The notes below the pieces were generated by a model that saw only the letters and a list, made by a program, of their open reading frames with translations, had not been told where the DNA came from and ran no database searches. The translations under genes were made by a program, and so were the position numbers. Of a stretch of DNA of 64,000 nucleotides, positions 3 through 48,369 are shown piece by piece (the first letter of the stretch is position 1; each line of letters begins with the position of its first letter). The stretch lies in the NCBI GenBank assembly GCA_934090935.1, contig CAKOKD010000002.1, positions 25,438 through 89,437 on the forward strand, written 5' to 3'. This stretch comes from an uncultured Bacilli bacterium. Its GTDB lineage: Bacteria > Bacillota_I > Bacilli_A > RF39 > UBA660.

Positions 3-602
3 GAAAGCAAAAAAATAATCCTAACTGAAGGTGAATATAGTTTAAGTGAAACTATTGCACCAGATGGATATAAATTAAGCACAACTACAATTGAATTTAA
101 AGTTGATGCAAACGGAAGCGTTTATGTTAAAAACGAAAAAGGTAACTATGCTGCAGTAGACAAAGTAGTAATGATCAACGTTTTAAAAGATGTTGTAACA
201 ATAGCTAAAAAAGATTCAAAAACTGATGCTTTAGTAGCCGGAGCAACATTAGTTATTAAGGATAAAAATGGAAACGTTATAAAAGAATTCACTACAACAG
301 GCGAGTACTTCCAATTAACAATGGACGCTGGAACATACACAATAGAAGAAAAAAGTGCTCCAAAAGGTTACATCAAAAGTAACGAAGTAATCGAGTTTGA
401 ATTACTTGAAAACGGAACATTAAAAATCAAGAATAAAAATGGGGATTTTATCGAGAGCAATTTAGTAACATTCTATAACACTAAAGGTGAAGAAGTAGTA
501 GTTCCTGCAACATCTGCTTCAAGTACACTTTTAATTATTGGTGGTATAATGCTAATTATAGGTGGTACTTACTGTGTTAAAAAAACTATCAAAGAATGCT
601 AA
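3..602 (+). CDS. Cell-surface protein, C-terminal fragment (Cna-B/SpaA-type prealbumin-like repeats plus C-terminal sorting signal); the 5' end lies outside the window
   Basis: Frame 3 is open from base 3, so the Met at 171 in the ORF track is internal. Repeats such as GEYSLSETIAPDGYKL and GTYTIEEKSAPKGYIKS are typical of Gram-positive stalk domains. The tail (VVPATSASS, then hydrophobic TLLIIGGIMLIIGG, then basic KKTIKEC) has sorting-signal architecture. A sortase gene follows. Confidence 0.7.
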   Translation, partial: ESKKIILTEGEYSLSETIAPDGYKLSTTTIEFKVDANGSVYVKNEKGNYAAVDKVVMINVLKDVVTIAKKDSKTDALVAGATLVIKDKNGNVIKEFTTTGEYFQLTMDAGTYTIEEKSAPKGYIKSNEVIEFELLENGTLKIKNKNGDFIESNLVTFYNTKGEEVVVPATSASSTLLIIGGIMLIIGGTYCVKKTIKEC

Positions 603-1191
603 GGTAACCCTAGGCATTCTTTTGCTATTCTTCGGTATATTTTGTTTAACATTTACATACTTTAAAAGTATAAAATTAAATCTATTCAATCAAAAAAATC
701 TTGAGTATTTTGAGGAAATCGACATATCGGAAGATGTTGACGAAGTAGATGAAGTAAACGAGATAAAAGAAGAAACAACAACACCAATAATAAATTATAA
801 CTACATAGGTTACTTAGAAATCCCTAAAATTAATTTAAAAAGAGGATTTGTATCCTTAAACTCAAAATATAACAGTATTTCATACAATGTCATGCTTATA
901 AAAGGAAGCAGCATGCCAGATGTAAAAAACGGAAACTTAATTCTTGCAGCTCATAGAGGTAATTCATCGGTCTCATTTTTTGATAAATTATATAAACTTG
1001 ATATCGGTGATACTGCAAGTGTAACTTATAATGATAAAGTATATACATATAAACTTGTAAATACTTATCTTGAAGAAAAAGATGGAACTATCGCGATATA
1101 TCGTGATGAAACAAAAAACACACTTACACTTATAACATGTACAAGAAATGATAAAAAAACTCAAACAGTATTTATCTTTGAAATGATTTAG
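562..1191 (+). CDS. Sortase family transpeptidase
   Basis: N-terminal membrane anchor, LILAAHRG (catalytic His region) and TLTLITCT (TLxTC catalytic Cys motif). It sits directly downstream of a sorting-signal protein. The true start may be an internal GTG near 574, because 562 overlaps the upstream CDS by 41 nt. Confidence 0.85.
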   Translation: MVLTVLKKLSKNAKVTLGILLLFFGIFCLTFTYFKSIKLNLFNQKNLEYFEEIDISEDVDEVDEVNEIKEETTTPIINYNYIGYLEIPKINLKRGFVSLNSKYNSISYNVMLIKGSSMPDVKNGNLILAAHRGNSSVSFFDKLYKLDIGDTASVTYNDKVYTYKLVNTYLEEKDGTIAIYRDETKNTLTLITCTRNDKKTQTVFIFEMI

Positions 1192-10125: not shown

Positions 10126-10137
10126 ACTAGTGGTTTT
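10110..10137. terminator. Bidirectional hairpin shared by the convergent XRE gene and sigK
   Basis: AAACCACTAG-attaa-CTAGTGGTTT inverted repeat spanning both stop codons. Confidence 0.5.
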
Positions 10138-10828
10138 ATAATTCAACATTTTTCTTTTTACATTCACGATATATTTTAGAAATTGCTCTTTTTTCAATTC
10201 TAGAAACATATGATCTCGAAATACCTAAATTCTCAGCAATCTCTTTTTGAGTAAGTTCATCCTGATTAAAAAGTCCATATCTTTTTATAATGATATCTTT
10301 TTCACGAGGATTAAGAATGCTTAAATACCATTCAATGCTATCAATATTTTGATGTTTGTGAATTGTATCAGCAATATCCTCATCGTTAGATTTTATTACA
10401 TCCATTAAACTAATTTCATTTCCTTCAGAATCATGTCCAATTGCATCATTTAAAGAAACATTATTTAAATTTTTTTTATTGCTTCTAAAATACATTAGAA
10501 TTTCATTTTCAATACAACGAGCTACATAGGTTGTTAATTTATTTTTCTTATCCGGTTTAAATGAGTCAATTCCTTTAATTAATCCAATTGTTCCTATGCT
10601 TATAAGATCATCATTTATTTTTTCTATTCTTTCAAATTTTTTTACAATATGGGCAACTAATCTCAAATTATGTTCAATTAATTTAGCACGAGCATCTTTA
10701 TTGCCAAGTTTCATTTCACCAATAAGTTTTTCTTCCTCTTCACTGGATAAAGGATTTGGAAAAACATTGATAGAATAAGAACCAGTAGAGAAGGATAAAA
10801 GATTAAATAAATGAATTAAAAATAACAT
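10136..10828 (-). CDS. sigK: Sporulation sigma factor SigK (pro-sigma-K), uninterrupted
   Basis: VFPNPLSSEEE..., IEHNLRLVAHIVKKFE, DLISIGTIGLIKGIDSF, YVARCIENEILMYFR and LGISRSYVSRIEKRA match B. subtilis SigK closely; SigE would read IERNLRLVVYIARKF. A hydrophobic pro-sequence is present. AGGTGA RBS. Confidence 0.85.
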   Translation of the reverse strand: MLFLIHLFNLLSFSTGSYSINVFPNPLSSEEEEKLIGEMKLGNKDARAKLIEHNLRLVAHIVKKFERIEKINDDLISIGTIGLIKGIDSFKPDKKNKLTTYVARCIENEILMYFRSNKKNLNNVSLNDAIGHDSEGNEISLMDVIKSNDEDIADTIHKHQNIDSIEWYLSILNPREKDIIIKRYGLFNQDELTQKEIAENLGISRSYVSRIEKRAISKIYRECKKKNVEL

Positions 10829-13231: not shown

Positions 13232-14216
13232 AATATGTTTTGGATGTGGAGTTAAATTACAATCTACCGATAAAGAAAAACTTGGTTATGTACCAGAAGG
13301 AAAGTTGGATACATCAAAGTATTGTATGCGTTGTTTTAGAATGATGCATTATGGAGAAATGAAATCGGAGGAAACTCCTAAAGATAAAAAAGAGATAATT
13401 AACAAAATCAATAAGGATAATAAATTTGTTATATTCTTAGTTGACTTTTTAAATATAAATGAAAATACAATGGATTTATATAGAAGTATAAAACGAGACA
13501 AACTTCTTGTAATCAATAAGTGCGAGTTATTACCAAAACATGTTAACCGTGAAAACATAAGAAATTTCGTCAAGGAATATTATCACGTTAATGGAGAGAT
13601 AAGGCTTAAAGGTGGAAATAATTCTCATGGAGCTACGTCAATCTTAAATTATTTAGAAAAAAATAATATAAAAGAAACTTATATAGTTGGAATGACTAAT
13701 GCTGGTAAAAGTACTTTAATAAATGATCTAATAAAAGCAACAAATACAGATATTTCTAAAATTAATGTAAACAATAAAAAGAATACAACTCTTGATTTTA
13801 TTCGTGTAAAATTGAATAATGGTCTTCTTTTAATTGATTCTCCAGGAATTGTTTTTTGTGACTTTGTGTCATGTGATGTTGTTGATGATAGTGTTGGTGC
13901 TTATAGTTTTAACATGAAGTCAGGTGAGACTTTGGCTTTACTTGATAGAAAATATTATGTAAAAGTAGATTCGCCAACTCCAATAACTTTTTATACTAAT
14001 TTAAATGCAAAAAATGTTGCTAAGAAAGTTTATAAGAATCTTGAGAAATTGGACAATTCAATAGAAGTTTTGGGAAATACAGATATTATTATAAAAGGTA
14101 TTGGTTTTATATCTATAAAAAATAGAACAAAAATAAGTCTTAATATAGATCCTAAATATTTAGAAATTAGAAAGAGTATTTTTGGAGGTATTTATGAAAA
14201 TACAAGTAATGAGTGA
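13224..14216 (+). CDS. yqeH: Ribosome biogenesis GTPase YqeH (circularly permuted)
   Basis: N-terminal zinc knuckle CFGCGVKLQ...CMRC. The motif order is permuted: INKCELL (G4), then GMTNAGKSTLIN (G1), then IDSPG (G3). Confidence 0.8.
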   Translation: MNKICFGCGVKLQSTDKEKLGYVPEGKLDTSKYCMRCFRMMHYGEMKSEETPKDKKEIINKINKDNKFVIFLVDFLNINENTMDLYRSIKRDKLLVINKCELLPKHVNRENIRNFVKEYYHVNGEIRLKGGNNSHGATSILNYLEKNNIKETYIVGMTNAGKSTLINDLIKATNTDISKINVNNKKNTTLDFIRVKLNNGLLLIDSPGIVFCDFVSCDVVDDSVGAYSFNMKSGETLALLDRKYYVKVDSPTPITFYTNLNAKNVAKKVYKNLEKLDNSIEVLGNTDIIIKGIGFISIKNRTKISLNIDPKYLEIRKSIFGGIYENTSNE

Positions 14217-15969
14217 TGATTTAGCTAATAAAATTGCTGCTGGAGAAGTTGTTGAAAGAATTTCTTCAGTTGTCAAAGAATTAGTTGAAAATAGTATTGA
14301 TGCTGGTAGTAAAACTATAATAGTTGATTTAGTTGAAAGTGGAACTAAACAAATAAAAGTAACTGATGATGGAAGTGGAATGGATCATGATGATGCTCTT
14401 TTATCATTTAGAAGACATGCAACTAGTAAGATAAAAAAAGAAGATGATTTATTTTTTATTTCTACATTGGGATTTCGTGGTGAAGCATTACCAAGTATTG
14501 CGTCAGTTTCAAAGGTGGATCTTCGTACTTCAACTGGAGTAGGTGGAACCCATATCGTTATTAATGGAGGAACTTTAGTAACTGATGAAAATTCTCAAGA
14601 AAAGCGTGGAACAACTATAAGCGTCGATGATTTATTTTATAATACACCTGCTAGATTAAAATATTTAAAAAGTGATATTACAGAACTTTCTAATGTTACT
14701 ACTTATATTGAAAAACTAGCATTAAGTCATCCGAATATTTCTTTTACTTTAACCAATAATGATAAAAGAATTGTATTTACTTCGGGTAGTTCTGATCTTC
14801 TTAAAACTATTCATGAAATATATAGTTATCAAGTTAGTTCTAATATGCTTTCTTTTAAAGCTAGCAATGATGATTATGATATCTCTGGTTTTATTTGTAA
14901 ACCTAGCGTTTTAAAAAGCAATAGAAATCATATGACAACTATTGTTAATGGTAGATGTGTAAGAAATGCTGAAGTTAATGCAGCTATAAACGATGGATAT
15001 CATACTTTTAAGCCAGATATAAAGTATCCGGTTGTAGTAATGATGATTGATACTGATCCAACACTTATAGACGTTAATATCCATCCAACAAAACAAGATA
15101 TTAAATTCTCAAAAATTGAAGGACTTAAAACTCTTATTACAGAAACAGTTAATTCCACATTAAAAAAAGCTCTTTTAATTCCAAAGATAGATACTTATGA
15201 ATATCAAGAAATCAATGAATATCCAACAATATCTGACGTTGAAAAGATAGAAACTGAAGAGATTCAATTTGATTTTAAAACGACTCCAAAAGAGGATATA
15301 ACTAAGGAATCCACTTTTGAAGATATTAAGAAAATCGTCGATGAAACTAAAAATCCAGCATTAGTTGAAAATGAACAAATAAAAAAAGAAGAGTTATATG
15401 CTGTTGGAATTGCTTTAGGAACTTATATAATAGCTCAAAATGAAAAAGGAATGTATTTGATTGATCAACACGCTGCTCAAGAAAGAATTAATTATGAACG
15501 TGTTTTAAGAGGGCTTGAAAGTGCAACTATTTATACAACACCTTTACTTCTTCCAATTCCAATTGAACTTACTACATCGGAATTTTTAAAGATAAAAGAA
15601 AATATGAATGTATTAAACGATTTAGGTTTTAAAATAGAAGAATTTGGAATAAATACCTTTGTAGTTAAAGAGCATCCTACTTGGTTGATAAATGGATTAG
15701 AAACAGAAAGCATCAGACGTATTTTTGATATCATAATTGAAGGTAAAAATATGTTTGATCGCGTTAAATTTCATGATCATATAGCAGCAACTATGGCATG
15801 CAAAATGAGTGTTAAAGGGAATGAAGCGATAACACTTGAACAAGCTCAAAAACTTTTAGATGATTTGGTTTTATGCAATAATCCATATAACTGTCCACAT
15901 GGAAGACCAACAATAATTACATTTACTCGTTATGAACTTGAAAGAATGTTTAAAAGAGTTATGAATTAG
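14194..15969 (+). CDS. mutL: DNA mismatch repair protein MutL
   Basis: LANKIAAGEVVERISSVVKELVENSIDAG (GHKL ATPase) and C-terminal CPHGRP. The ATG at 14194 follows a GGAGG RBS and overlaps the end of yqeH. Confidence 0.9.
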   Translation: MKIQVMSDDLANKIAAGEVVERISSVVKELVENSIDAGSKTIIVDLVESGTKQIKVTDDGSGMDHDDALLSFRRHATSKIKKEDDLFFISTLGFRGEALPSIASVSKVDLRTSTGVGGTHIVINGGTLVTDENSQEKRGTTISVDDLFYNTPARLKYLKSDITELSNVTTYIEKLALSHPNISFTLTNNDKRIVFTSGSSDLLKTIHEIYSYQVSSNMLSFKASNDDYDISGFICKPSVLKSNRNHMTTIVNGRCVRNAEVNAAINDGYHTFKPDIKYPVVVMMIDTDPTLIDVNIHPTKQDIKFSKIEGLKTLITETVNSTLKKALLIPKIDTYEYQEINEYPTISDVEKIETEEIQFDFKTTPKEDITKESTFEDIKKIVDETKNPALVENEQIKKEELYAVGIALGTYIIAQNEKGMYLIDQHAAQERINYERVLRGLESATIYTTPLLLPIPIELTTSEFLKIKENMNVLNDLGFKIEEFGINTFVVKEHPTWLINGLETESIRRIFDIIIEGKNMFDRVKFHDHIAATMACKMSVKGNEAITLEQAQKLLDDLVLCNNPYNCPHGRPTIITFTRYELERMFKRVMN

Positions 15970-23938: not shown

Positions 23939-26068
23939 ATGAAGAAGTTCATGCTTTTTATTATTTCTTTAATTTTATTTATTCCAAGCGTTAAAGCTCT
24001 TAGTTTTTGTGAGGAATCAGAAGAGCATAAAAAATGGAGTATATTAAGTGAAGAAATGAAAAGTCAAGTGATTGAGCCAAAATATTGTGAAGAGACAGCC
24101 AAGAGCAGTGTGCACAGCCTGGTTGGTGCCAGCAATACCTTTTATTCATCTGTGGATTTAGGACTTATAACAAGTGTAAAAAATCAAGGTAATACCAATG
24201 CTTGTTGGGCTTTTGCTGGTGCATCTCTTATGGAAACATCAGCTATAATGAATGGTTTAACTTCTCTAGATTTATCCGAAAGACATATCAATATGATGTC
24301 TACTTATAAAGCTTATTTAAATGGAGAGGTTAATAAAAGTGGTTATAATCGAGATGCTAATGATGGAGGGAACTATTCTTATGTTGCTTCTTATCTTTTT
24401 AGAGGTGACGGACCGCTTCTTGAAAGCACATTTCCATATATTCTTCCATGGTCAAGCAATTATGCTCCAATAGATAAAAAAACTATGCCAGCAAATAATC
24501 CGATATTAACTATTGATGAATACATGAGTGATTATACATCGCTTACGTGTACAGATGATAGATTGACAACTATCAAAGGCTATATTAGAAAATATGGTGC
24601 GGTTGGAACTCTTATAAATTCTTCGTCTGGTACATCAAGTTTGGATGAAGTCTATTATATAAATACAACAAATGAATATTCTGATCATGCCGTAGTGATT
24701 GTTGGATATGATGATACAATCAGCAAGGATAATTTTAAAGGAGCAACTCGTGATGGAGCATTCTTAGTAAAAAATTCATGGGGAACTGATTTTGCCTTAA
24801 ATGGCTACTACTATATTTCATATGATGATATACGTATATGTAGAAATGTAGTTGCATTTAGTGGAACTAATATAAATGAATATGACCATACATATAATTC
24901 AAGCGACACGCTTGCAAACACTTCAATAAGAAGCAATGATTCTATAATGGTAAGCACTAAAATAAATATAACAGGAAGTCAAATTCTTGATAAAATAAGT
25001 ATTGAGGTTATAAAGGATACGCCTTATCAAATATATTTATCAAAAAATAATGACTTAAATACACCTTCATCTTGGAATATCCTTGGAAGTGGTATTTCAG
25101 CATCAGAAGGTGTCATAAGTATAAAAAATTTGAATATAAAACTATCAAGTTCAGCAACCATTATTGTTAAATTCAATAAATCAGGATATGTTGCACCGCT
25201 TATGTGTAAAAGCACGAATGAATTCAATCAACATCATTATATGGAGATAAGCAGTGGACTAAATTATATAAATAATGGTTCCGGTTGGGTTGATTTAAGT
25301 ACTGTTGGGTCTGGAACTCTTGTTTCATGTGAACCAGTAATCTATGCATATACTTATAATGAAAATAAGACCTTTGGTTCAATAGATAATATATATATTT
25401 CTAGTTCATCAAATAAAGTTTATACCAATTCAAAGGATTATTTTAATGTTGACTTTAAATCAAGCAATTTAAAAAGTAATGAACTTATAAGTGTTGATAT
25501 AACAAAAGATGGAAAAAGTGTCAAAAATGATTTTGATATCGATAGAAGCAAAGTAAACAACAACTATTTTGTTTTAAAACTAAAAAATTCTACTAAATCT
25601 GGACATTATACAGTTTACTTGAAATATAGTAATTCAACTAAATCAATAGATTTTGATATCTATGGTAGAATAAGTTCAAGTACATTTAACATAGATGGGG
25701 AATATATTAAAATATTGCCTAAAAAGGATATAACTTTAACGAAAGAATATATTTTGGATAATATTGTTTCTCAAACTGATATGAACGTTAAAAGAAATGA
25801 AGAAGAATTGGTGGATAAGGAAACGATAAAAAGTGGTGATAAACTTACAACTATCGTTAGTGAATATACTATTATCCTTATAGGAGACGCAAATATGGAT
25901 GGAAAAATATCCGCACTTGATTATGTGAGAATAAAAAATCATATTCTAGGAAACAAAGTCATGACGGATAAAATAAATTTATTAAGTGCAGATGCAAATG
26001 AAGATGGTAAAATAACTCCACTTGATTATGTAAGAATAAAAAATAGAATTTTAAGGAGTGAAGTATGA
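23939..26068 (+). CDS. Secreted papain-family (C1) cysteine peptidase with a C-terminal dockerin-like repeat pair
   Basis: Signal peptide. NQGNTNACWAFAGAS (catalytic Cys), DHAVVIVGYDD (His) and VKNSWG (Asn/Trp). The C-terminus has GDANMDGKISALDYVRIKNHILG and ADANEDGKITPLDYVRIKNRIL, which read as duplicated Ca-binding dockerin segments. Confidence 0.8.
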   Translation: MKKFMLFIISLILFIPSVKALSFCEESEEHKKWSILSEEMKSQVIEPKYCEETAKSSVHSLVGASNTFYSSVDLGLITSVKNQGNTNACWAFAGASLMETSAIMNGLTSLDLSERHINMMSTYKAYLNGEVNKSGYNRDANDGGNYSYVASYLFRGDGPLLESTFPYILPWSSNYAPIDKKTMPANNPILTIDEYMSDYTSLTCTDDRLTTIKGYIRKYGAVGTLINSSSGTSSLDEVYYINTTNEYSDHAVVIVGYDDTISKDNFKGATRDGAFLVKNSWGTDFALNGYYYISYDDIRICRNVVAFSGTNINEYDHTYNSSDTLANTSIRSNDSIMVSTKINITGSQILDKISIEVIKDTPYQIYLSKNNDLNTPSSWNILGSGISASEGVISIKNLNIKLSSSATIIVKFNKSGYVAPLMCKSTNEFNQHHYMEISSGLNYINNGSGWVDLSTVGSGTLVSCEPVIYAYTYNENKTFGSIDNIYISSSSNKVYTNSKDYFNVDFKSSNLKSNELISVDITKDGKSVKNDFDIDRSKVNNNYFVLKLKNSTKSGHYTVYLKYSNSTKSIDFDIYGRISSSTFNIDGEYIKILPKKDITLTKEYILDNIVSQTDMNVKRNEEELVDKETIKSGDKLTTIVSEYTIILIGDANMDGKISALDYVRIKNHILGNKVMTDKINLLSADANEDGKITPLDYVRIKNRILRSEV

Positions 26069-27036
26069 TGAAAAAATATCTAAATTTTTTAATCTTTATA
26101 TTGCTTTTATTTCCAGTATCGGTTTTAGCAAGTGGAAGTATAAAAGTAAATAAATATAATGTTACTCTAACTCCAGGTTCAAGTGAAAGCATAAAGATAA
26201 CTGCCAACAATGCAACAGGAGTATATAGAATAAGCAGTTCTAATCCAAGTGTTGCAAGCGTAGATGTAAATCAAGATTGGGTTGATAATGAAACTAAAAC
26301 ATTTAATATAAAAGGATTATCTGTAGGTACTACAACCATATCAGTAAGTGTAGATGGTTCCGATTATGATGAAGTAGAAATTATTACGACTTATAAAATA
26401 GTTGTCTATGTAAATAATCCAACTACAACAACAACTAAGACAGTAGAAGAAAAGCAAACAACTACTAAATCTTCTACTAAAATAACTACTGCTTCAAAAA
26501 ATCAAACCACTTTAAAAACTACCGCGAAAACTACAACAACAACTACGACAAACATAATCGAAGAGACAACTCAAATTGTAGAACCAACAACAGAGTTATC
26601 ATCATCATCAACACCTATGTTGAAAAATTTAAAAATAGTTGGATATGATATTGACTTCAAAAGCAATCAAACCAATTATAAAATCACGATTCCTTCATCC
26701 TTAAGAGAACTATATCTAATAACTGAAAAGGATGGATCAATTACATGTAATGATGGCTTAATAGATATAACTGATAAAGACTATATTGTTTTAACATCTA
26801 TTGATAATAATTCTAATGAAAAAAAAGAATATAAAATAGATTTAATTAGAAAAGCTTACAAAGAACAAAATAAAAACTATAAAAATTTAGTTTATACAAT
26901 ATTAATATTTGTTGCATTTACATTAGTAGTTATAACTATTATATTTACATTAAGAAAAATGATAAACAACAAAAAAATAAAATATCAAGAACCTAAAGAA
27001 GATGAATTAACTTTTAAAAATGATTATTTTGAATAG
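26065..27036 (+). CDS. Surface protein: Big_2-like Ig domain, Thr-rich linker, cadherin-like beta-sandwich, C-terminal TM anchor
   Basis: Its start overlaps the peptidase stop (ATGATG). VTLTPGSSESIKITANNA...SSSNPSVASVD is Big_2-like. LKNLKIVGYDIDFKSNQTNYKITIPSS is cadherin-like. The C-terminal helix is LVYTILIFVAFTLVVITIIF. Confidence 0.65.
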   Translation: MMKKYLNFLIFILLLFPVSVLASGSIKVNKYNVTLTPGSSESIKITANNATGVYRISSSNPSVASVDVNQDWVDNETKTFNIKGLSVGTTTISVSVDGSDYDEVEIITTYKIVVYVNNPTTTTTKTVEEKQTTTKSSTKITTASKNQTTLKTTAKTTTTTTTNIIEETTQIVEPTTELSSSSTPMLKNLKIVGYDIDFKSNQTNYKITIPSSLRELYLITEKDGSITCNDGLIDITDKDYIVLTSIDNNSNEKKEYKIDLIRKAYKEQNKNYKNLVYTILIFVAFTLVVITIIFTLRKMINNKKIKYQEPKEDELTFKNDYFE

Positions 27037-27181
27037 AAGACTTATTTCAATAAAGAAATAAGTCTTCTTTTTATAAAAACAAACTATTTACACATAATAA
27101 AAATGAATATACAAAATACAATAAAAATGTTGTATAATATAAGAAACAATAGGAGAGCAAAATAAAAAAGACGACAAAAGT

Positions 27182-27231
27182 AATGTAAAACAGAATAATG
27201 CCCTTGAAAATCGGGGGGGTATTATAAAATA
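27182..27231 (+). promoter_or_regulatory. Family promoter copy 1: AATGTAAA-N14-TTGAAAATC-G7-TATTATAAAAT
   Basis: AATGTAAA at 27182-27189, TTGAAA at 27204-27209, G7 at 27213-27219 and TAAAAT at 27225-27230. The same architecture precedes the 36820 and 47518 genes. Confidence 0.6.
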
Positions 27232-27255: not shown

Positions 27256-28548
27256 ATGAAGAAAAGGAGTGCAATAATAGTTGCAATAGTTTTTATGATG
27301 ATTGGATTTGCAGCAGTAAGTACATCATTAATAATAAATGGAAATACAAAAGTATCCGAAAACAATGAAGATTTTTCAGTAATATTTACTGCAGCTTCAT
27401 TAGATGGAGAAGATGTGTATTCATCAGTAGTAGATGATACAAAAAAGACAATTACATTTACAAGTAAAGATCTAAAGAAAATCGGAGACACATCAACCCT
27501 AACATATGAAGTAACAAATAATTCAGCAAACTATGATGCAGATGTTAAAGTAACATGTGTACCGAAGACTGGAACAACAGCAAAATATACAAGTATAAAA
27601 AACAAGTTAGACAATGATGCCACAGTAGTAAAAGCCAAAGAAACATTAAATGGAACATTAACAGTAACGCTTGATAAAACATCAATAGAAGAAGTAAGTG
27701 AAGAATATACATGTAAACTAGAGTTCAATGCAGTAGAAAGAGAAGAACTGGGTTATAATGGACCTACAGAGTGGACATTTGATTACACTGGAGGAGAACA
27801 AACCTTTATAGCACCAATGTCTGGAACGTACAAATTAGAAACATGGGGAGCACAAGGCGGAAGCAGAAATGGATATAAAGGCGGATACGGTGGATATTCA
27901 TATGGTAATATAATATTGAAGCGTAGTGACGAAGTATATATTAACGTTGGTGGTAGTGGATCTAATCTAAATGGAGGATACAACGGAGGTGGATCCAGAT
28001 CTGACGATAGTAGTAGCTGGGTTGCTGGAAGCGGAGGTGGAGCCACTCACATAGCAACAAAATCCGGAACACTTACAACTTTTGGAAATAATAAAAATAA
28101 TATTTTAATAGTTTCTGGCGGAGGCGGCGGAAGTTCGATGAGTACTGGTGGTGTATTTAGTGCCAATGGTGGCTCCGGCGGAGGCTATGTAGGAGTAAGT
28201 ATCCAAAAATCTACTGGTGGAAGTCAAACAAGTGGCGGTTTAGATGCGAAAGGAGTAATTAATTCTTCTTTTGGCAAGGGAGCATCTTGTTATAATGAAG
28301 GAGCTGGCGGAGGCGGATTTTATGGCGGTGGTTCTGGATCCCATTCTGAAATTGGATATTCAGGAGCTGGTGGCTCCGGTTATATTGGAAACACCCTTTT
28401 AACTGAAAAATCAATGTATTGTTATAACTGTGCTACATCTGCTGAAGAGTCAACTAAAACAATTTCAACTACATGTACAAGTGCTACACCAACAGCTAAT
28501 TGTGCTAAACAAGGAAATGGATACGCTCGAATTACTTTAATAAAATAA
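27256..28548 (+). CDS. Family member 1: shared signal peptide and N-module fused to an ALK/LTK-type glycine-rich domain
   Basis: N-terminus MKKRSAIIVAIVFMMIGFAAVSTSLIING...EEYTCKLEFNAVER. It continues with WTFDYTGGEQTFIAPMSGTYKLETWGAQGG..GGYGGYSYG..VGGSG..GGYNGGG..GSGGGATHIA, the hallmark of Pfam Gly_rich (PF12810) as I recall it. Confidence 0.75.
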   Translation: MKKRSAIIVAIVFMMIGFAAVSTSLIINGNTKVSENNEDFSVIFTAASLDGEDVYSSVVDDTKKTITFTSKDLKKIGDTSTLTYEVTNNSANYDADVKVTCVPKTGTTAKYTSIKNKLDNDATVVKAKETLNGTLTVTLDKTSIEEVSEEYTCKLEFNAVEREELGYNGPTEWTFDYTGGEQTFIAPMSGTYKLETWGAQGGSRNGYKGGYGGYSYGNIILKRSDEVYINVGGSGSNLNGGYNGGGSRSDDSSSWVAGSGGGATHIATKSGTLTTFGNNKNNILIVSGGGGGSSMSTGGVFSANGGSGGGYVGVSIQKSTGGSQTSGGLDAKGVINSSFGKGASCYNEGAGGGGFYGGGSGSHSEIGYSGAGGSGYIGNTLLTEKSMYCYNCATSAEESTKTISTTCTSATPTANCAKQGNGYARITLIK

Positions 28549-28615: not shown

Positions 28616-28692
28616 TGGTGACCCGTACGGGATTTGAACCCATGAATGCATGCGTGAAAGGCATGTGTGTTAAACCACTTCACCAACGGGCC
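28616..28692 (-). tRNA. tRNA-Glu (anticodon UUC), CCA encoded
   Basis: The reverse complement reads GGCCCGTTGGTGAAGTGGTTTAACACACATGCCTTTCACGCATGCATTCATGGGTTCAAATCCCGTACGGGTCACCA. It folds as a cloverleaf with anticodon loop CTTTCAC. A TTGACA-18-TATTAT promoter lies at 28703-28732 (-) and a terminator hairpin at 28581-28603 (-). Confidence 0.9.
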
Positions 28693-36745: not shown

Positions 36746-36795
36746 AATGTAAACACATAAAATGTCCTTGAAAATCGGGGGGGGTATTATAAAAT
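36746..36795 (+). promoter_or_regulatory. Family promoter copy 2: AATGTAAA-N14-TTGAAAATC-G8-TATTATAAAAT
   Basis: AATGTAAA at 36746-36753, TTGAAA at 36768-36773, G8 at 36777-36784 and TAAAAT at 36790-36795. Confidence 0.6.
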
Positions 36796-36819: not shown

Positions 36820-39120
36820 ATGAAGAAAAGTGCAATAATAGTTGCAATAGTTTTTATGATGATTGGATTTGCAGCAGTAAGTACATCATTGATAATAAAT
36901 AGTAATATAAAAGTATCAGAGAATGAAACAGATTTTGATGTATATTTTAGTAAAGCAAGATTGGATACAATAGATGTATATGAAAGTGTAATAAGTCAAG
37001 ATAAAAAGACAATAACATTTAATACTAATAATTTAAGTAAAGTAGGAGATAAATCAGTACTTACATATGAAGTAACAAATAATTCAAATAACTATGATGC
37101 AGAAGTGCGTGTTACATGTACACCAGAAAACAATAAATATACAAGTATAACAAATACAATAGATGTAGAAAATGACATAGTACCAGCAAGAAATACAGCA
37201 AAAGGGAGAGTAACAATAACATTAAATAAAACATCATTAGAAGAAGTGAGTGAAGAATATACATGTTCGTTAGAGTTTAATGCAGTAGAAAGAGAAAGTA
37301 TAGGAATATCTAGTAATAAACCAGCAGAACCAGAATTAACTAATGATTTAGTTCCAGTAATAATAGCAGACAATGGAACTGTAAAAAAGGCGGATACAAC
37401 AACTGAATGGTATAATTATGAAAACAAAGTTTGGGCAAATGCCGTAATATTAAAAGATGATTACGATGATTTAAATGAAAATGGAAAAATAAATGGGGCA
37501 ACAAAAGAAGATAATCAAGTAACCTTAGATGGAGTAGACGATTATATTAATTTAGGATTAGAAAACTATGATTTTAAAGATAGTATGACATTGGCGATAA
37601 AATTAAGATTTAATAAAGATGACTCTGTTCAAGAATTCTTTGGGAATTGGGAAGTTGGTGGAATGGGAATTGGATATGGTGGGTATAATAATAAAAAACT
37701 TGTTGCCGCTATGTATGATAAATCATCATCAAGTTACGTATCATTTTTTTCTAATCAAACAATCAAAAAAAATAAGGAATATTTAATTGCTATTAGCTAT
37801 GATGGAAAAAATTTAAAATTATATATTGACGGCAAATTAGATAAAAGTGTTGCAACAACTGGAAATATTGGTTTAAGTAGTCAACCGATATTTATTGGTG
37901 CAAATCCAAGTCCAAGTGGAACACATGTTAATTATTCAAATATATCAGTGAAAAAAGCAGCGATATATGATCGAGCATTAAGTGAAGAAGAAATAACTAA
38001 ATATTATAAAAATGACATAATAATCAATGATGATACAGATTTACTAAAATATGTTAATTTTGAAAAAACAACTGCAAATGATGAGATAATACCAGAAAAT
38101 AATATTGAATCATATTTTGTATGGATACCAAGATACAAATATAAATTATTTAATGTAGACAATTATAGTTTAACAACAGTAGCAAGTGCATCCGAAGTAG
38201 AAAGTAAAGCGCAAGAGATAGAAATAGAGTTTGAAAGTAGATATGATAAAGTATCAAATGGAAGCAAAAATGGAGAGTGGTTGACTCACCCAGCATTTAC
38301 AAGTTTTGATACAAATGGATTCTGGGTAGGAAAGTTTGAAACCGGATATAAAGGAGCAACAACAACAACTGCTGCTCAAGTAAATGAATCAGATTTTACA
38401 AAAGTAATAATAAAACCGAATGTATATAGTTGGAGAAATATAACAGTAAAGAATATATTTGAAACGAGTTATAACTATAATAGAGATGCAGATTCACATA
38501 TGATAAAGAATACAGAATGGGGAGCAGTAGCATATCTTTCACATTCCAAATATGGAATAGATAAAGAAATAAATATAAATAATAATTCATCATATAAAAC
38601 AGGATATTCATCTTTACCAACATTAGACCAAAGCTCATATCCAGGGACCTATGGAGATGGAGAAAATTATAATCAACCATACAATACTAGTATTGGTTAT
38701 CTTGCCTCAACAACAAGAAATATAAGTGGAGTATACGATATGTCCGGTGGAGCATGGGAATATACAGCTGGCTATATGTCAGGTCAATTAGGAAATAGTG
38801 AAATAACACCAACAAGTTACGATTCAAAATATATTGATGTTTATAGTTCATCAAGTACAATTATATCTTTTAATTATAGAATATTAGGGGATGCAACCGG
38901 AGAAATGGGACCTTTTAATAATTATTTAGAAAAAAATGGGACTTCTTATTATCACGGTAGCTGGTATAATGAAGAAGCTCATTTTATTAATTCATCTTTC
39001 CCATGGTTTTTTCGAGGCGGTTATTGGGATCGTGGAGTGTTGGCTGGAATTTTCTATTTTGATAGATTTACAGGGGGAGTGCATGTAAATGTCTCTTTCC
39101 GTCTAGTATTAACACCATAA
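36820..39120 (+). CDS. Family member 2: shared N-module, LamG/concanavalin-like domain and FGE-sulfatase (C-type-lectin-fold)-like C-terminal domain
   Basis: N-terminus MKKSAIIVAIVFMMIGFAAVSTSLIINS...EEYTCSLEFNAVER. LamG_3 pattern VTLDGVDDYINLG...YLIAISYDGKNLKLYIDGKL...IFIGANPS. SUMF1-like pattern HPAFTSF..GFWVGKFE, NTEWGAVAYL, GVYDMSGGAWEYTAG, FRGGYW and SFRLVL. Confidence 0.75.
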   Translation: MKKSAIIVAIVFMMIGFAAVSTSLIINSNIKVSENETDFDVYFSKARLDTIDVYESVISQDKKTITFNTNNLSKVGDKSVLTYEVTNNSNNYDAEVRVTCTPENNKYTSITNTIDVENDIVPARNTAKGRVTITLNKTSLEEVSEEYTCSLEFNAVERESIGISSNKPAEPELTNDLVPVIIADNGTVKKADTTTEWYNYENKVWANAVILKDDYDDLNENGKINGATKEDNQVTLDGVDDYINLGLENYDFKDSMTLAIKLRFNKDDSVQEFFGNWEVGGMGIGYGGYNNKKLVAAMYDKSSSSYVSFFSNQTIKKNKEYLIAISYDGKNLKLYIDGKLDKSVATTGNIGLSSQPIFIGANPSPSGTHVNYSNISVKKAAIYDRALSEEEITKYYKNDIIINDDTDLLKYVNFEKTTANDEIIPENNIESYFVWIPRYKYKLFNVDNYSLTTVASASEVESKAQEIEIEFESRYDKVSNGSKNGEWLTHPAFTSFDTNGFWVGKFETGYKGATTTTAAQVNESDFTKVIIKPNVYSWRNITVKNIFETSYNYNRDADSHMIKNTEWGAVAYLSHSKYGIDKEININNNSSYKTGYSSLPTLDQSSYPGTYGDGENYNQPYNTSIGYLASTTRNISGVYDMSGGAWEYTAGYMSGQLGNSEITPTSYDSKYIDVYSSSSTIISFNYRILGDATGEMGPFNNYLEKNGTSYYHGSWYNEEAHFINSSFPWFFRGGYWDRGVLAGIFYFDRFTGGVHVNVSFRLVLTP

Positions 39121-42180: not shown

Positions 42181-42423
42181 ATGGATAAGACAACTCTATT
42201 TGAACTTGATGATATAACAAATGCATTAATTGAAACTACTTTAGACGAGATATATGATGCTTTAAAGGAAAAAGGATATAATCCCGTTAGTCAAATAGTT
42301 GGATATTTAGTATCTGGGGATCCTGGATATATTACAAACTATAAAAATGCTCGTGATAAAATGCTTAATCTTGATCGAAATAAAGTGTTAGAGCTTATGG
42401 TGAAAGCGTACTTAGAGAACTGA
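42181..42423 (+). CDS. ireB: IreB-family regulatory phosphoprotein (UPF0297/YrzL)
   Basis: ALKEKGYNPVSQIVGYLVSGDPGYIT. The size (80 aa) and the position upstream of ruvX also fit. Confidence 0.8.
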   Translation: MDKTTLFELDDITNALIETTLDEIYDALKEKGYNPVSQIVGYLVSGDPGYITNYKNARDKMLNLDRNKVLELMVKAYLEN

Positions 42424-42851
42424 TGAGAACTTTAGGAATGGATTTAGGAACTAAGACTTTAGGTCTTGCTGTTTCCGATAAACTAGGGATAATTGCAAAT
42501 CCTTATAAAACTTTGAGGTATACAGACGTTGATGAACTTGTTTCAGAGGTTGTTTCTTTGATAGATGAGTTAAAAATTGAATCTCTTGTGCTTGGTTTTC
42601 CAAAGAATATGAACAACTCTTTAGGAGAAGCTGTTTCAAGAACAAACATATTTAAGGAAAAACTCGAAAGTAAAACGGATTTAAAGATAAATCTAGTGGA
42701 TGAGCGATTAAGCACTGTTGAAGCTGAAAAGTATCTTATCGGGGCTGATATGAGCAGAAAAAACCGTAAAGAAGTAATTGATGCTGTAGCAGCAAGTATC
42801 ATACTTGATACTTATTTAAAAAGAATGGGAAGTGGAAATAATGTTAGATAA
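42423..42851 (+). CDS. ruvX: Holliday-junction resolvase-like nuclease RuvX (YqgF)
   Basis: LGMDLGTKTLGLAVSD and DERLSTVEAE motifs. Confidence 0.85.
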   Translation: MRTLGMDLGTKTLGLAVSDKLGIIANPYKTLRYTDVDELVSEVVSLIDELKIESLVLGFPKNMNNSLGEAVSRTNIFKEKLESKTDLKINLVDERLSTVEAEKYLIGADMSRKNRKEVIDAVAASIILDTYLKRMGSGNNVR

Positions 42852-43134
42852 TGGAAAAATAGTTATAAAAAATGATAAAGGTGAAGAACTTACATGTGAT
42901 GTTTTATTCACATTTGATTCTGATGAAACTGGAAAAAGCTATATAGCTTACACAGACAATACTAAAGATAGCAAAGGAAATACTAAAGTATATGCAAGCA
43001 CTTATGATAAGAATGGTGATGATATGCAATTAAATCCTTTAACTAGTGAAAAAGAATGGAAAATCATTGATAATATCTTATCCAGTGTATTAGATATGGT
43101 TAAAGAACAAGCAAGCGGTGAAAACCATGAATAA
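42841..43134 (+). CDS. DUF1292 (YrzB) family protein
   Basis: ELTCDVLFTFDSDETGKSYIAYTD is typical. Syntenic with B. subtilis yrzB. Confidence 0.7.
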   Translation: MLDNGKIVIKNDKGEELTCDVLFTFDSDETGKSYIAYTDNTKDSKGNTKVYASTYDKNGDDMQLNPLTSEKEWKIIDNILSSVLDMVKEQASGENHE

Positions 43135-44215
43135 CGATATTGATAAGTTTAATAAAAAGATAAAAAAAGCTTTTTTTATTACTATGATTGTCGCTTTTTC
43201 TTTACTTGTAGTAGCTGGTGGAATAATGTTTTATAATATGTTACCAGTATCAAGTACGTCAAGAGAAGAGATTAGTTTTAAAGTAGAACCAGGTTCTAGC
43301 AAAAACCAAATAATAAATAATTTGAAAAAAGAAGGTTTAATTAAAAGCAAAAACATAACAAAAATAATAGTTAAATTAGGATATCAAAAGGGATTTTTAG
43401 CCGGTAATTATAAATTAAGCAAAAGCATGCCCTTGATGGATATTCTTGATAATTTAACAAATGGAACTAATATCGAAAAAAACGAAATAGCTGTTACTTT
43501 TATAGAGGGTAAACGTTTTACAGAATATATCGATGTAATGGTTAAAAATTTTAACTTTAATAAAGAAGCGGCTATTGAAACTTTAAGTGATAAAACTTAT
43601 TTACAAGAACTTATCAATAAATACTGGTTCTTAACAGATGACATTTTAAAAGATGGAGTATATTATCCTTTAGAAGGATACTTATTTCCAGATACATATT
43701 TCATAAAAAAAGATGCTACTATAAAAGAAGTAGTTGAAGTTCTTTTAAATGGAATGAACACTAAATTAGCTCCATATAAAGAATATTTAGAAACCAACAA
43801 CTTAAATATTACTAGTTTACTTACTCTTGCGAGTGTGATAGAATTAGAAGCAGCACTTGACACAGACAGAAAAGAAATATCCGGTGTATTTCAAAACCGA
43901 ATAAATAAAAATATGTCTATTGGAAGTGATGTAACCACGTATTATGCAGTAAAAAAAGAATTGGGTACTGCTTTAACTCAAAGTGATATTTCTTCATGTA
44001 ATGCATATAATACTAGGGGATCTTGTACTACAGGAATACCAGTCGGTCCGATATGTAGTCCGTCTCTTACATCAATTGATGCAGCAATATATCCAAATAA
44101 AAATGAATATTTATATTTTGTTGCAGACTCAAGTGGAAAAGTTTATTATAGTAAAACAGAAATTGAGCATATTAATACTATAAATGAACTTAAAAGTAAA
44201 GGACTTTGGTCTTAA
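43127..44215 (+). CDS. mltG: Endolytic peptidoglycan transglycosylase MltG (YceG-like)
   Basis: An N-terminal TM helix and a YceG pattern (LASVIELEA, YNTRG...GIPVGPICSP). Confidence 0.85.
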   Translation: MNNDIDKFNKKIKKAFFITMIVAFSLLVVAGGIMFYNMLPVSSTSREEISFKVEPGSSKNQIINNLKKEGLIKSKNITKIIVKLGYQKGFLAGNYKLSKSMPLMDILDNLTNGTNIEKNEIAVTFIEGKRFTEYIDVMVKNFNFNKEAAIETLSDKTYLQELINKYWFLTDDILKDGVYYPLEGYLFPDTYFIKKDATIKEVVEVLLNGMNTKLAPYKEYLETNNLNITSLLTLASVIELEAALDTDRKEISGVFQNRINKNMSIGSDVTTYYAVKKELGTALTQSDISSCNAYNTRGSCTTGIPVGPICSPSLTSIDAAIYPNKNEYLYFVADSSGKVYYSKTEIEHINTINELKSKGLWS

Positions 44216-47335: not shown

Positions 47336-47442
47336 CAATTTTTTTATGGATTTTTTTACTTTACACATAAAAAAACAAAATAATTAAAATACAACAAATA
47401 TGTAGTATAATAAAACTATACAGTAGGATATTTACAGGAAGT

Positions 47443-47492
47443 AATGTAAACTCTCCAAAATGACTTGAAAATCGGGGGGGGTATTATAAAAT
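47443..47492 (+). promoter_or_regulatory. Family promoter copy 3: AATGTAAA-N14-TTGAAAATC-G8-TATTATAAAAT
   Basis: AATGTAAA at 47443-47450, TTGAAA at 47465-47470, G8 at 47474-47481 and TAAAAT at 47487-47492. Confidence 0.6.
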
Positions 47493-47517: not shown

Positions 47518-48369
47518 ATGAAGAAGAAAAGTATGCTTATAGTAGCAATATTACTAATGAGTATTGGATTTGCAGCAATTTCAACAACATTAATAATAAA
47601 CGGGTCTGCTAAGGTAAGTGAAAATCAAGATGACTTCTCAGTTATCTTCACAGCTGCAACATTAGATGGAAAGGATGTATATTCATCAGTAGTAGATGAT
47701 ACAAAGAAGATAATTAATTTCACAACAAGTGATTTAAAAACACTTAATCAAACAAGTATATTAAATTATGAAGTAACAAATAACTCAAGTAACTATGATG
47801 CAGAAGTAAATGTAACGTGTGTACCAAAGACTGGAACAACAGCAAAATATACAAGTATCAAAAATAAACTAGATAATGATGCAACAGTAGTTAAAGCAAA
47901 AAGTTCAGTAAATGGAACATTAACAGTAACACTAGATAAGGTAGCAACAGAAAGTGTAACCGAAGAATATACATGCAAATTAGAATTCAATGCAGTAGAA
48001 AGAGATACATTAGGAGTAACAAAATTAACATACTATTATGCATTTGGAACACCAACAACAGCAAGTGCAACAGATTATACAACATTAGGAAAAAATGTAT
48101 TTGTAAGATTGGGGTCTGATGATTCAAAAGCAGTATGTATAAATGATAATGGATTATTTTGTATCAAACCAAATGATTATGACAATTCAGTTTTAGCATT
48201 AAAAAATCATTTTGGAGAATCGGCTTGTAGTGACGATGGTTCTAACTTCAACTGCAACTCTGATGCATTCAGTTGCAATGCTAATTCATATGGCAACGTG
48301 AATTGCGACGATAACTCGACTAATGAGTACTGCATTGTGTACCAGGATGGTCGTGTTGCGTGCCGCTAG
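47518..48369 (+). CDS. Family member 3: shared N-module fused to a short Cys-rich C-terminal domain
   Basis: N-terminus MKKKSMLIVAILLMSIGFAAISTTLIING...EEYTCKLEFNAVER. The tail has 10 Cys (CINDNGLFC...CSDDGSNFNCNSDAFSCNANSYGNVNCDDNSTNEYCIVYQDGRVAC). Confidence 0.75.
   Translation: MKKKSMLIVAILLMSIGFAAISTTLIINGSAKVSENQDDFSVIFTAATLDGKDVYSSVVDDTKKIINFTTSDLKTLNQTSILNYEVTNNSSNYDAEVNVTCVPKTGTTAKYTSIKNKLDNDATVVKAKSSVNGTLTVTLDKVATESVTEEYTCKLEFNAVERDTLGVTKLTYYYAFGTPTTASATDYTTLGKNVFVRLGSDDSKAVCINDNGLFCIKPNDYDNSVLALKNHFGESACSDDGSNFNCNSDAFSCNANSYGNVNCDDNSTNEYCIVYQDGRVACR

Follow-up and report, generated by a model that had tools for sequence, protein, structure and literature searches.

Do runs of guanine residues between the −35 and −10 boxes of bacterial promoters act as slippage-driven switches for the genes behind them, or are they fixed parts of those promoters? 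The question is raised by three paralogous genes for secreted proteins in a 64-kb stretch of DNA (the window; GC content, 29.7%) from an uncultured Bacilli bacterium, each preceded by the same short element with a run of seven or eight G residues. A first-pass annotation of the window had proposed that these runs lie in promoter spacers and may change in length by slipped-strand mispairing.

The G-tract promoter at three window sites

Runs of six or more G residues occur three times in the whole 64-kb window, each inside TTGAAAATC-G(7/8/8)-TATTATAAAAT, and the longest C runs are ≤5 nt; from the base composition of the window, 0.28 runs of G≥7 and 0.05 runs of G≥8 would be expected. The first-pass annotation had described G/C runs as otherwise almost absent and had placed one element before all three paralogues, with tracts of G7, G8, and G8; both descriptions agreed with the sequences and G-run coordinates obtained here. 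Direct reading put the TTGAAAATC-G7-TATTATAAAAT of copy 1 at 27204-27230 (27 nt) and the TTGAAAATC-G8-TATTATAAAAT of copies 2 and 3 at 36768-36795 and 47465-47492. The coordinates previously given for the latter two were right, whereas the end of copy 1 had been set at 27231, one base too far. The element common to all three sites can also be written CTTGAAAATC-G(n)-TATTATAAAAT. The promoter cores and a terminator-like structure ahead of copy 1 are located as follows.

27204..27230, plus strand: promoter core of copy 1, with −35 TTGAAA (27204-27209), ATC (27210-27212), G7 (27213-27219), TATTA (27220-27224), and −10 TAAAAT (27225-27230); spacer of 15 nt
36768..36795, plus strand: promoter core of copy 2, with −35 TTGAAA (36768-36773), G8 (36777-36784), and −10 TAAAAT (36790-36795); spacer of 16 nt
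47465..47492, plus strand: promoter core of copy 3, with −35 TTGAAA (47465-47470), G8 (47474-47481), and −10 TAAAAT (47487-47492); spacer of 16 nt
27035..27068, plus strand: terminator-like hairpin (14-pair stem) and T run at the end of the gene upstream of copy 1; 0.1 such sites expected by chance

When the window was scanned with the flanks, allowing at most three mismatches and any filler of 8 nt, the two G8 copies alone were matched (chance expectation, 0.02). The end of the element lies 24 to 26 nt from the ATG of the downstream paralogue in all three copies. As the terminator-like hairpin at 27035-27068 cuts off the upstream gene, copy 1 would form a separate transcription unit.

The interpretation of each site as a sigma-A-type promoter, with the G run filling the middle of the spacer between −35 and −10, is well supported by sequence comparison. 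The boxes named in the first-pass annotation (TTGAAA as −35 and TAAAAT as −10, with a spacer of 15 nt for G7 and 16 nt for G8) were upheld by a consensus scan and by the register seen in more distant species. The scan called TTGAAA-16-TAAAAT at copies 2 and 3, with 10 of 12 consensus positions matched; it covered spacers of 16 to 18 nt only, and the G7 copy, with its 15 nt, was not called. The more distant species carry TTGACA-ATC-G8-TATTA-TATACT, in which the −35 is canonical and the −10 stands in the exact register of the window TAAAAT, and the hexamer pair conserved across lineages is TTGAMA-16-TAnAnT. Homologues that lack the homopolymer still have an 8-nt filler (GGGGAGGC, GGTTGGTG, AGTGGCAG, or GGGGGGGA), and decayed homologues read TATGATATACT, which places the TG of an extended −10 before TATACT (TGnTATACT). 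The register in the distant species and the retention of an 8-nt filler after decay thus indicate that G8 serves as a conserved 16-bp spacer in a sigma-A-type promoter. In the set of homologues recovered through their protein sequences (see below), ATC was found in 41 of 42 copies and TATTA in 38 of 42, a tighter conservation than that of positions 4 and 5 of the −35 or of the −10 hexamer.

Other assignments were inspected by eye and set aside. GGGTAT at the 3′ end of the tract resembles part of a SigB promoter, but no GTTTAA lies 12 to 15 nt upstream; TGTAAAC...CGAC, which would suggest an ECF-type promoter, is spaced by ∼9 nt and not 16 to 17; a catabolite-control cre site is off by one; and the SigF/SigG −10 patterns show mismatches and no −35. 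Use of TATTAT as the −10 was also rejected: it would leave a spacer of 11 nt with no conserved −35 upstream. An Rfam scan of the whole window returned a single tRNA and no RNA family at the three promoter sites.

Two further elements lie upstream of the G-tract promoter.

27182..27189, 36746-36753, and 47443-47450, plus strand: upstream box AATGTAAA, separated from each TTGAAA by 14 nt and at about −55 from the predicted start
27087..27138 (copy 1) and 47360-47411 (copy 3), plus strand: second promoter-like element, here termed type B (TTTACACATAA ... TATAAT), within the homology shared by copies 1 and 3

Both had been noticed in the first-pass annotation, the first as a conserved box exactly 14 nt before the −35 and the second as extra upstream homology of copies 1 and 3 with TATAAT at 27133-27138 and 47406-47411, and both were confirmed. 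The box is kept as (G/A)TGTAAAC in related cassettes. Type B follows the pattern TTTACACATAAT, ∼33 nt, TTGTATAAT. At copies 1 and 3 it forms a tandem with the G-tract promoter, lying on its upstream side, and in copy 3 the consensus scan called TTAAAA-16-TATAAT at 47384-47411; copy 2 and most related cassettes are without it. In related genomes, type B alone, with no G tract, directly precedes at least 14 family members, from which it appears that the family uses two interchangeable promoter cassettes. Loci of this standalone kind include L117, L121, L122, L124, L126, L127, L131, L142, L147, and L149.

The TTTACA of type B (27087-27092 and 47360-47365) is the reverse complement of the TGTAAA of the upstream box (27184-27189 and 47445-47450), ∼90 bp away, and each lies ∼55 nt upstream of its own predicted start. 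The two may be putative binding sites of one common factor. When copy 3 was compared with L073 and L245, six substitutions were found within 19 nt of the type B element (47371-47389) and the remaining ∼3.8 kb was identical; the cluster looks like a small recombination patch.

The downstream family and the spread of the cassette

The three genes behind the G-tract promoters encode paralogues that share an N-terminal domain.

27256..28548, plus strand: paralogue 1 (430 aa), with a signal peptide, the common N-terminal domain, and a glycine-rich C-terminal domain (Pfam ALK_LTK_GRD, 2.7e−32)
36820..39120, plus strand: paralogue 2 (766 aa), with the common N-terminal domain followed by Laminin_G_3 and a long C-terminal region
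47518..48369, plus strand: paralogue 3 (283 aa), with the common N-terminal domain and a small cysteine-rich C-terminal domain

All three proteins have a signal peptide and are 67 to 78% identical to one another over their N-terminal ∼165 residues; the C-terminal parts are unrelated. The N termini (MKKKSxxIVAIxxMxIGFAA|VST...) hold no cysteine and resemble an ordinary type I signal-peptidase site. A parallel previously drawn with the vlp lipoprotein genes of Mycoplasma hyorhinis is therefore apt for the conserved promoter and 5′ cassette joined to variable C termini of secreted proteins, but does not extend to a lipoprotein with a lipobox cysteine. The common N-terminal domain had no match in Pfam or NCBIfam, none of 580 homologue clusters of the family carried a name or Pfam domain, and a PDB sequence search found nothing. 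The AlphaFold2 model of paralogue 3 was confident only in the C-terminal ∼95 residues, with low confidence for the N-terminal domain (mean pLDDT, 59.8); Foldseek gave no match in the PDB at an E value of <0.01.

In loci L266 to L269, a 283-aa family member with a G8 promoter (601-1452) is followed by bAvd (1641-2036) and by RVT_1 from position 2020, a context that, judged from these genes, is a diversity-generating retroelement signature (bAvd plus reverse transcriptase). In an alignment of the 283-aa members, conserved and variable positions alternate over the C-terminal ∼50 residues; no template or variable repeats were found within the 1.45 kb of L266 that was searched. A retroelement of this type inside the window was considered and rejected, the open reading frames at 42181-44215 being those of IreB, RuvX, DUF1292, and YceG. 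By eye, the C terminus of paralogue 2 (...GVYDMSGGAWEY...RGGYWDRGVLAGIFYFDRFTGGVHVNVSFRLVLTP), which is also present in L061, is like a C-type-lectin or FGE-like fold; Pfam gives only Laminin_G_3, further upstream. Such folds are typical of the variable regions of diversity-generating retroelements.

The neighbors of the three paralogues are core genes (mraZ, mraW, ftsL, gyrB, greA, rpoB, rpoC, polC, mutL, and a penicillin-binding protein gene), which indicates that the host is a walled Firmicute and that the locus is not a mobile element. One of these genes bears on the tracts, since mismatch repair lowers slippage rates.

14182..15969, plus strand: mutL (Pfam MutL_C and DNA_mis_repair; NCBIfam TIGR00585, 528 bits against a cutoff of 180)

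The gene upstream of mutL encodes an RsgA-like GTPase, not MutS. Several other features of the window were observed. PolC (57317-63061) has 1,914 aa, ∼470 residues more than the 1,445-position NCBIfam model, and aligns with it in five separate segments, a pattern suggestive of a large insertion that may be an intein or an additional domain. A sigma factor gene at 10136-10828 (minus strand) matches the NCBIfam sporulation SigK subfamily at 301 bits (cutoff, 252), a hint that the lineage may form spores or at least retains sporulation sigma factors. A protein with a SpaA-fold domain is encoded beside a sortase at the start of the window (171-1191), and a papain-family protease with a dockerin domain (23939-26068) two genes upstream of copy 1; these are further cell-surface machinery nearby. 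A tRNA-Glu gene (anticodon TTC; 28616-28692, minus strand) lies 68 nt past the stop codon of paralogue 1.

A scan of one genome per species with the pattern CTTGAAAATC-N5-12-TATTATAAAAT gave ∼42 true matches, confined to three genomes: CAKOPW and CAKOJJ, which are "uncultured Bacilli" genomes from Hadza gut metagenomes, and Firmicutes bacterium CAG:582. The fillers of these matches were G8 (n = 36), G7 (n = 1), G6 (n = 2), GTGGGGGGGG (n = 2), and GGGGAGGGGG (n = 1). A search anchored on the protein N-terminal domain, which is unbiased as to the promoter, returned 79 loci from ∼8 related species. Among the 74 assessable genes of this set, 40 had a pure G tract, 6 to 8 an interrupted or decayed one, and 14 only type B, with the rest having other promoters or lying inside operons. 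The earlier statement that a G tract stands before every family member thus applies to the three window paralogues but not to the wider family, where pure G-tract promoters account for 40/74 assessable genes (∼54%). A scan of human-gut metagenome assemblies added 90 loci, and pooling of all sources gave 155 distinct copies from at least eight uncultured gut "Bacilli" species, a lower bound on the taxonomic range, and from many human-gut metagenomes. Most of the matches listed by a further broad genome scan were unrelated.

The cassette is reused heavily within single genomes. One related metagenome-assembled genome has at least 30 cassette promoters (26 with G8, 1 with G7, 2 with G6, and 1 interrupted), and another related genome has at least 19, with G8 in 19/19. 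Other families of secreted or membrane proteins, and one or two cytoplasmic-looking proteins, are also preceded by it. No G run of ≥6 was found outside this promoter context in the window or in ∼200 kb of related loci. When all pattern matches were subjected to strict orthologue clustering, few clusters resulted, because many contigs end inside the cassette. Outside the clade, isolated promoters that combine TTGACA with a run of seven or eight G residues and a −10-like box were seen in other registers in Coprococcus eutactus (L287) and in an uncultured Clostridia bacterium (L317); in the latter, G8 abuts TATTAT and the spacer is also 16 nt. These two promoters may be chance matches or independent examples.

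Tract length and its variation

Across the 155 pooled copies, the tract was G8 in 125, G6 in 9, G7 in 8, and G9 in 2, with ∼11 interrupted or other. In the protein-anchored set, 39/42 pure G tracts were G8, and over the different sets G8 made up ∼81 to 93% of copies. The first-pass annotation had reasoned that the gain of one G would give an optimal 17-nt spacer; the counts run against G9 as the favored state (2/155, versus 125/155 for G8). It had also proposed a comparison of tract lengths across strains; between samples, length differences are rare, with 28 of 30 consensus sequences at five orthologous loci carrying G8. The loci compared are listed below.

Copy 1 locus: G8 in seven other samples; the G7 of the window is a singleton
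Copy 3 locus: G8 in every other sample examined (three loci in one comparison; five orthologous loci plus L249, whose contig ends just after G8, in another)
Locus P0003: G8 in four samples, with no other length
Locus P0098: G8 in four samples, with no other length
Locus P0039: G8 in six samples and G7 in one (L274)

Over 4,293 bp, the window and L072 differ by one single-nucleotide polymorphism and one indel (99.95% identity), and the indel is the G tract of copy 1. A G9/G8 difference was also found between L214 (G9) and L238 (G8). As a control, runs of A or T of ≥6 were scored in the same alignments; 4/214 of these were variant compared with 2/30 for the G tract, a difference that is not significant. 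The tract variant of the copy 1 locus is matched in frequency by an A6/A5 polymorphism that lies 12 nt farther downstream. Interrupted fillers of 9 to 10 nt also occur (GGGGAGGGGG, GTGGGGGGGG, and GGGGGTGGG), which suggests that longer tracts may have existed earlier.

Assembly errors account for part of the variation. In assembly VOFC01, all seven cassette loci (L166, L167, L173, L177, L194, L199, and L240) depart from G8, with four G6 tracts, one G7 tract, one GGGGAGGGGG filler, and L240. As every copy is off G8 and several of the contigs also carry A-run indels or frameshifted genes, these variants were ascribed to systematic homopolymer error and discounted. The G7 of copy 1 in the window could likewise be an assembly error. 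Perfect G8 in more than 100 promoters, across species in which the hexamers and upstream boxes have diverged, is best read from these comparisons as being under selection.

Switch or fixed spacer

Two of the features that define repeat-driven phase-variable promoters can be recognized here: a slippable repeat (∼7 or more G/C residues) and, as judged by sequence comparison, the location of that repeat between −35 and −10. The explanation given the best chance, just short of even, is a promoter that would be on by default, in which slippage would occasionally alter the spacer length, so that individual family members are dimmed or silenced. The ∼60-bp cassette that a clade of uncultured human-gut Bacilli reuses before dozens of secreted-protein genes consists of the TGTAAA box, N14, TTGAAA, ATC, G8, TATTA, TAAAAT, a ∼20-nt leader that includes a ribosome-binding site, and the ATG. 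Paralogues and species alike keep the 16-bp geometry, which makes G8 the most likely active state. Replication slippage in the perfect homopolymer would give rise to occasional G7, G6, or G9 alleles, of which copy 1 of the window (G7; 15-bp spacer) may be one, and each off-length allele would weaken or silence only its own promoter. At copies 1 and 3, the type B promoter upstream would remain available when the G-tract promoter was weakened. Overall, a family that is on by default would have a slow and reversible dimmer, or off switch, that acts on one gene at a time. That G8 is on, that G7 is off or low, that the change can be reversed, and that the homopolymer is retained because its mutability is useful are all steps that we infer.

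Several observations fit the switch reading: the position of the tract, the single-unit variants, and the apparently free drift of the filler after interruption; the secreted products with variable C termini, one member lying beside bAvd and a reverse transcriptase gene; and the retention of the homopolymer despite diverged flanks (G8 in 39/42, 125/155, 26/30, and 19/19 copies in the respective sets). G/C tracts of this length are also known substrates for slippage. A classical contingency system is disfavored by the uniformity of the loci, nearly all of the 20 to 30 per genome being in the one G8 state, and by consensus-level variation that is no greater than that of A/T runs. With MutL encoded in the window, slippage is expected to be slower than in Campylobacter or Mycoplasma. 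Switching by tract length is plausible, with a tract much more stable in length than those of classical phase-variable loci.

The conservation of ATC and TATTA beyond that of the hexamers hints at a sequence-specific role and tells against the switch. It also points to a fixed cis element, in which G8 with ATC/TATTA would be read by its sequence or DNA shape, by RNA polymerase or a dedicated regulator, to coordinate a secreted-protein regulon, the length variants being damaged promoters or errors. This alternative, the main rival, is somewhat unlikely, with several points in its favor: the predominance of G8 (81 to 93%) holds over at least eight species, the cassette stands before several unrelated secreted or membrane families as in a regulon, the TGTAAA/TTTACA box at about −55 is conserved in both promoter types, and variation in the tract does not exceed that of A/T runs. 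It sits less well with the decayed non-G tracts that still precede intact genes at unchanged spacing, and with the filler, which seems to drift freely once interrupted (from GGGGAGGC to GGTTGGTG to AGTGGCAG), where a base-specific site should stay partly conserved. The element also has no dyad symmetry, and recognition of a poly-G spacer by a Firmicute factor is not known to us. A fixed element and slippage switching are not mutually exclusive. A combined form, rated lower again as unlikely, would make ATC-G8-TATTA a new kind of sequence-specific spacer element that is read by RNA polymerase or a clade-specific factor and coordinates a secreted-protein regulon of at least 30 genes, with slippage dropping single genes out.

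The uniformity of the tract might instead reflect recent spread of the cassette by duplication, with gene conversion keeping the copies alike, G8 as a mere 8-nt spacer, and the G7 of the window as an error. The high similarity of cassette and N-terminal coding region among 20 to 30 paralogues per genome, the frequent breaking of contigs at the cassette, as happens at repeats, and the singleton status of the window G7 against G8 in seven samples are what such spread would leave. Recent spread alone is insufficient, however, where G8 is kept although the −35, −10, and upstream boxes have diverged (TTGAAA/TAAAAT versus TTGACA/TATACT). Over such distances, a neutral G8 should drift in length and composition, and no G run of ≥6 lies outside the promoter context in the window and ∼200 kb of related loci; this explanation is consequently held to be improbable. 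Very improbable is a transcribed tract, which would have the start upstream, at type B or at a weak TGTAAA-N16-GAAAAT promoter, and the G run acting in the leader or first transcribed bases, for example, through reiterative transcription or leader structure. Transcripts from type B at copies 1 and 3 would indeed read through the G run, and TGTAAA-16-GAAAAT can be drawn by eye in related cassettes. Yet copy 2 and most related cassettes lack type B, TTGAMA/TAnAnT is a much better promoter match and is the pair conserved across lineages, and the sites show neither an Rfam match nor a conserved pairing partner for the G run.

Return to the default-on promoter with slippage invites comparison with known systems, of which the vlp genes of M. 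hyorhinis come closest in architecture. These reportedly carry a poly(A) tract of ∼17 to 20 nt in the −35/−10 spacer, whose length varies between genes and clones. Both systems place a homopolymer in the spacer, both are multigene families in which a conserved promoter and signal-peptide cassette is joined to variable external regions, both hosts belong to the Bacilli/Mollicutes branch, and in both each gene would be independently switchable. They differ in that the vlp tract is poly(A) and variable, whereas the one described here consists of G residues and has a length of G8 in more than 80% of copies. The vlp genes encode lipoproteins, whereas this family has no lipobox cysteine. The present host is walled (penicillin-binding protein, MraZ, MraW) and encodes MutL, and the family in its clade is much larger, a single genome carrying at least 30 of the promoters.

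In Neisseria meningitidis, porA and opc are said to have poly-G and poly-C tracts, respectively, in their promoter spacers. As here, the −35 and −10 are separated by a G/C homopolymer, and there the spacer length sets promoter strength stepwise. Those are single genes of a Gram-negative pathogen, with tracts of 9 to 15 nt that differ widely between strains, in contrast to the shorter, near-invariant tracts of a large commensal family. The porA, opc, and vlp contingency promoters all have broad length distributions between strains and genes. The fim2/fim3/fimX promoters of Bordetella pertussis reportedly have poly-C tracts of ∼13 to 15 C. They too serve a small family of surface-structure genes with a common promoter whose C/G homopolymer determines how far the upstream activator/−35 region stands from the −10; their tracts are longer (∼13 to 15 C) and BvgA dependent, whereas the cassette has a conserved box at about −55 and no known activator.

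Repeat-driven phase variation is well known in pathogens of the genera Neisseria, Campylobacter, Haemophilus, and Mycoplasma, and in gut bacteria invertible promoters have been the main subject of phase-variation studies. To our knowledge, repeat-driven switching has rarely been described in commensal gut Firmicutes. In Campylobacter jejuni, which has no mismatch repair, simple-repeat indel rates are 1e−4 to 1.6e−3 per division, G8 tracts included (PMC8355987). The contingency loci of that species resemble the present family in having many poly-G tracts in a small AT-rich genome, with combinations of on and off states, and G8 is within the mutating range there; they are unlike it in that the tracts are mostly intragenic, mainly G9 to G10, and fast to mutate (PMC8355987), whereas here all are in promoter spacers, G8, and accompanied by MutL.

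A literature search found nothing on this element or lineage, and the G8 promoter element is, as far as was found, undescribed. It is probably a further case of repeat-driven phase-variable promoters, although the chance that the G8 block has a more specific nature is notable. A practical lesson is that assemblies with homopolymer errors, VOFC01 among them, can give the appearance of phase variation. The clade, with its small AT-rich genomes, keeps a perfect G8 in at least 30 promoters per genome before a large uncharacterized secreted family. If the tracts switch, a Gram-positive commensal would possess promoter switches in large number; if they do not, their near-perfect conservation points to a promoter element of a kind that has not been described.
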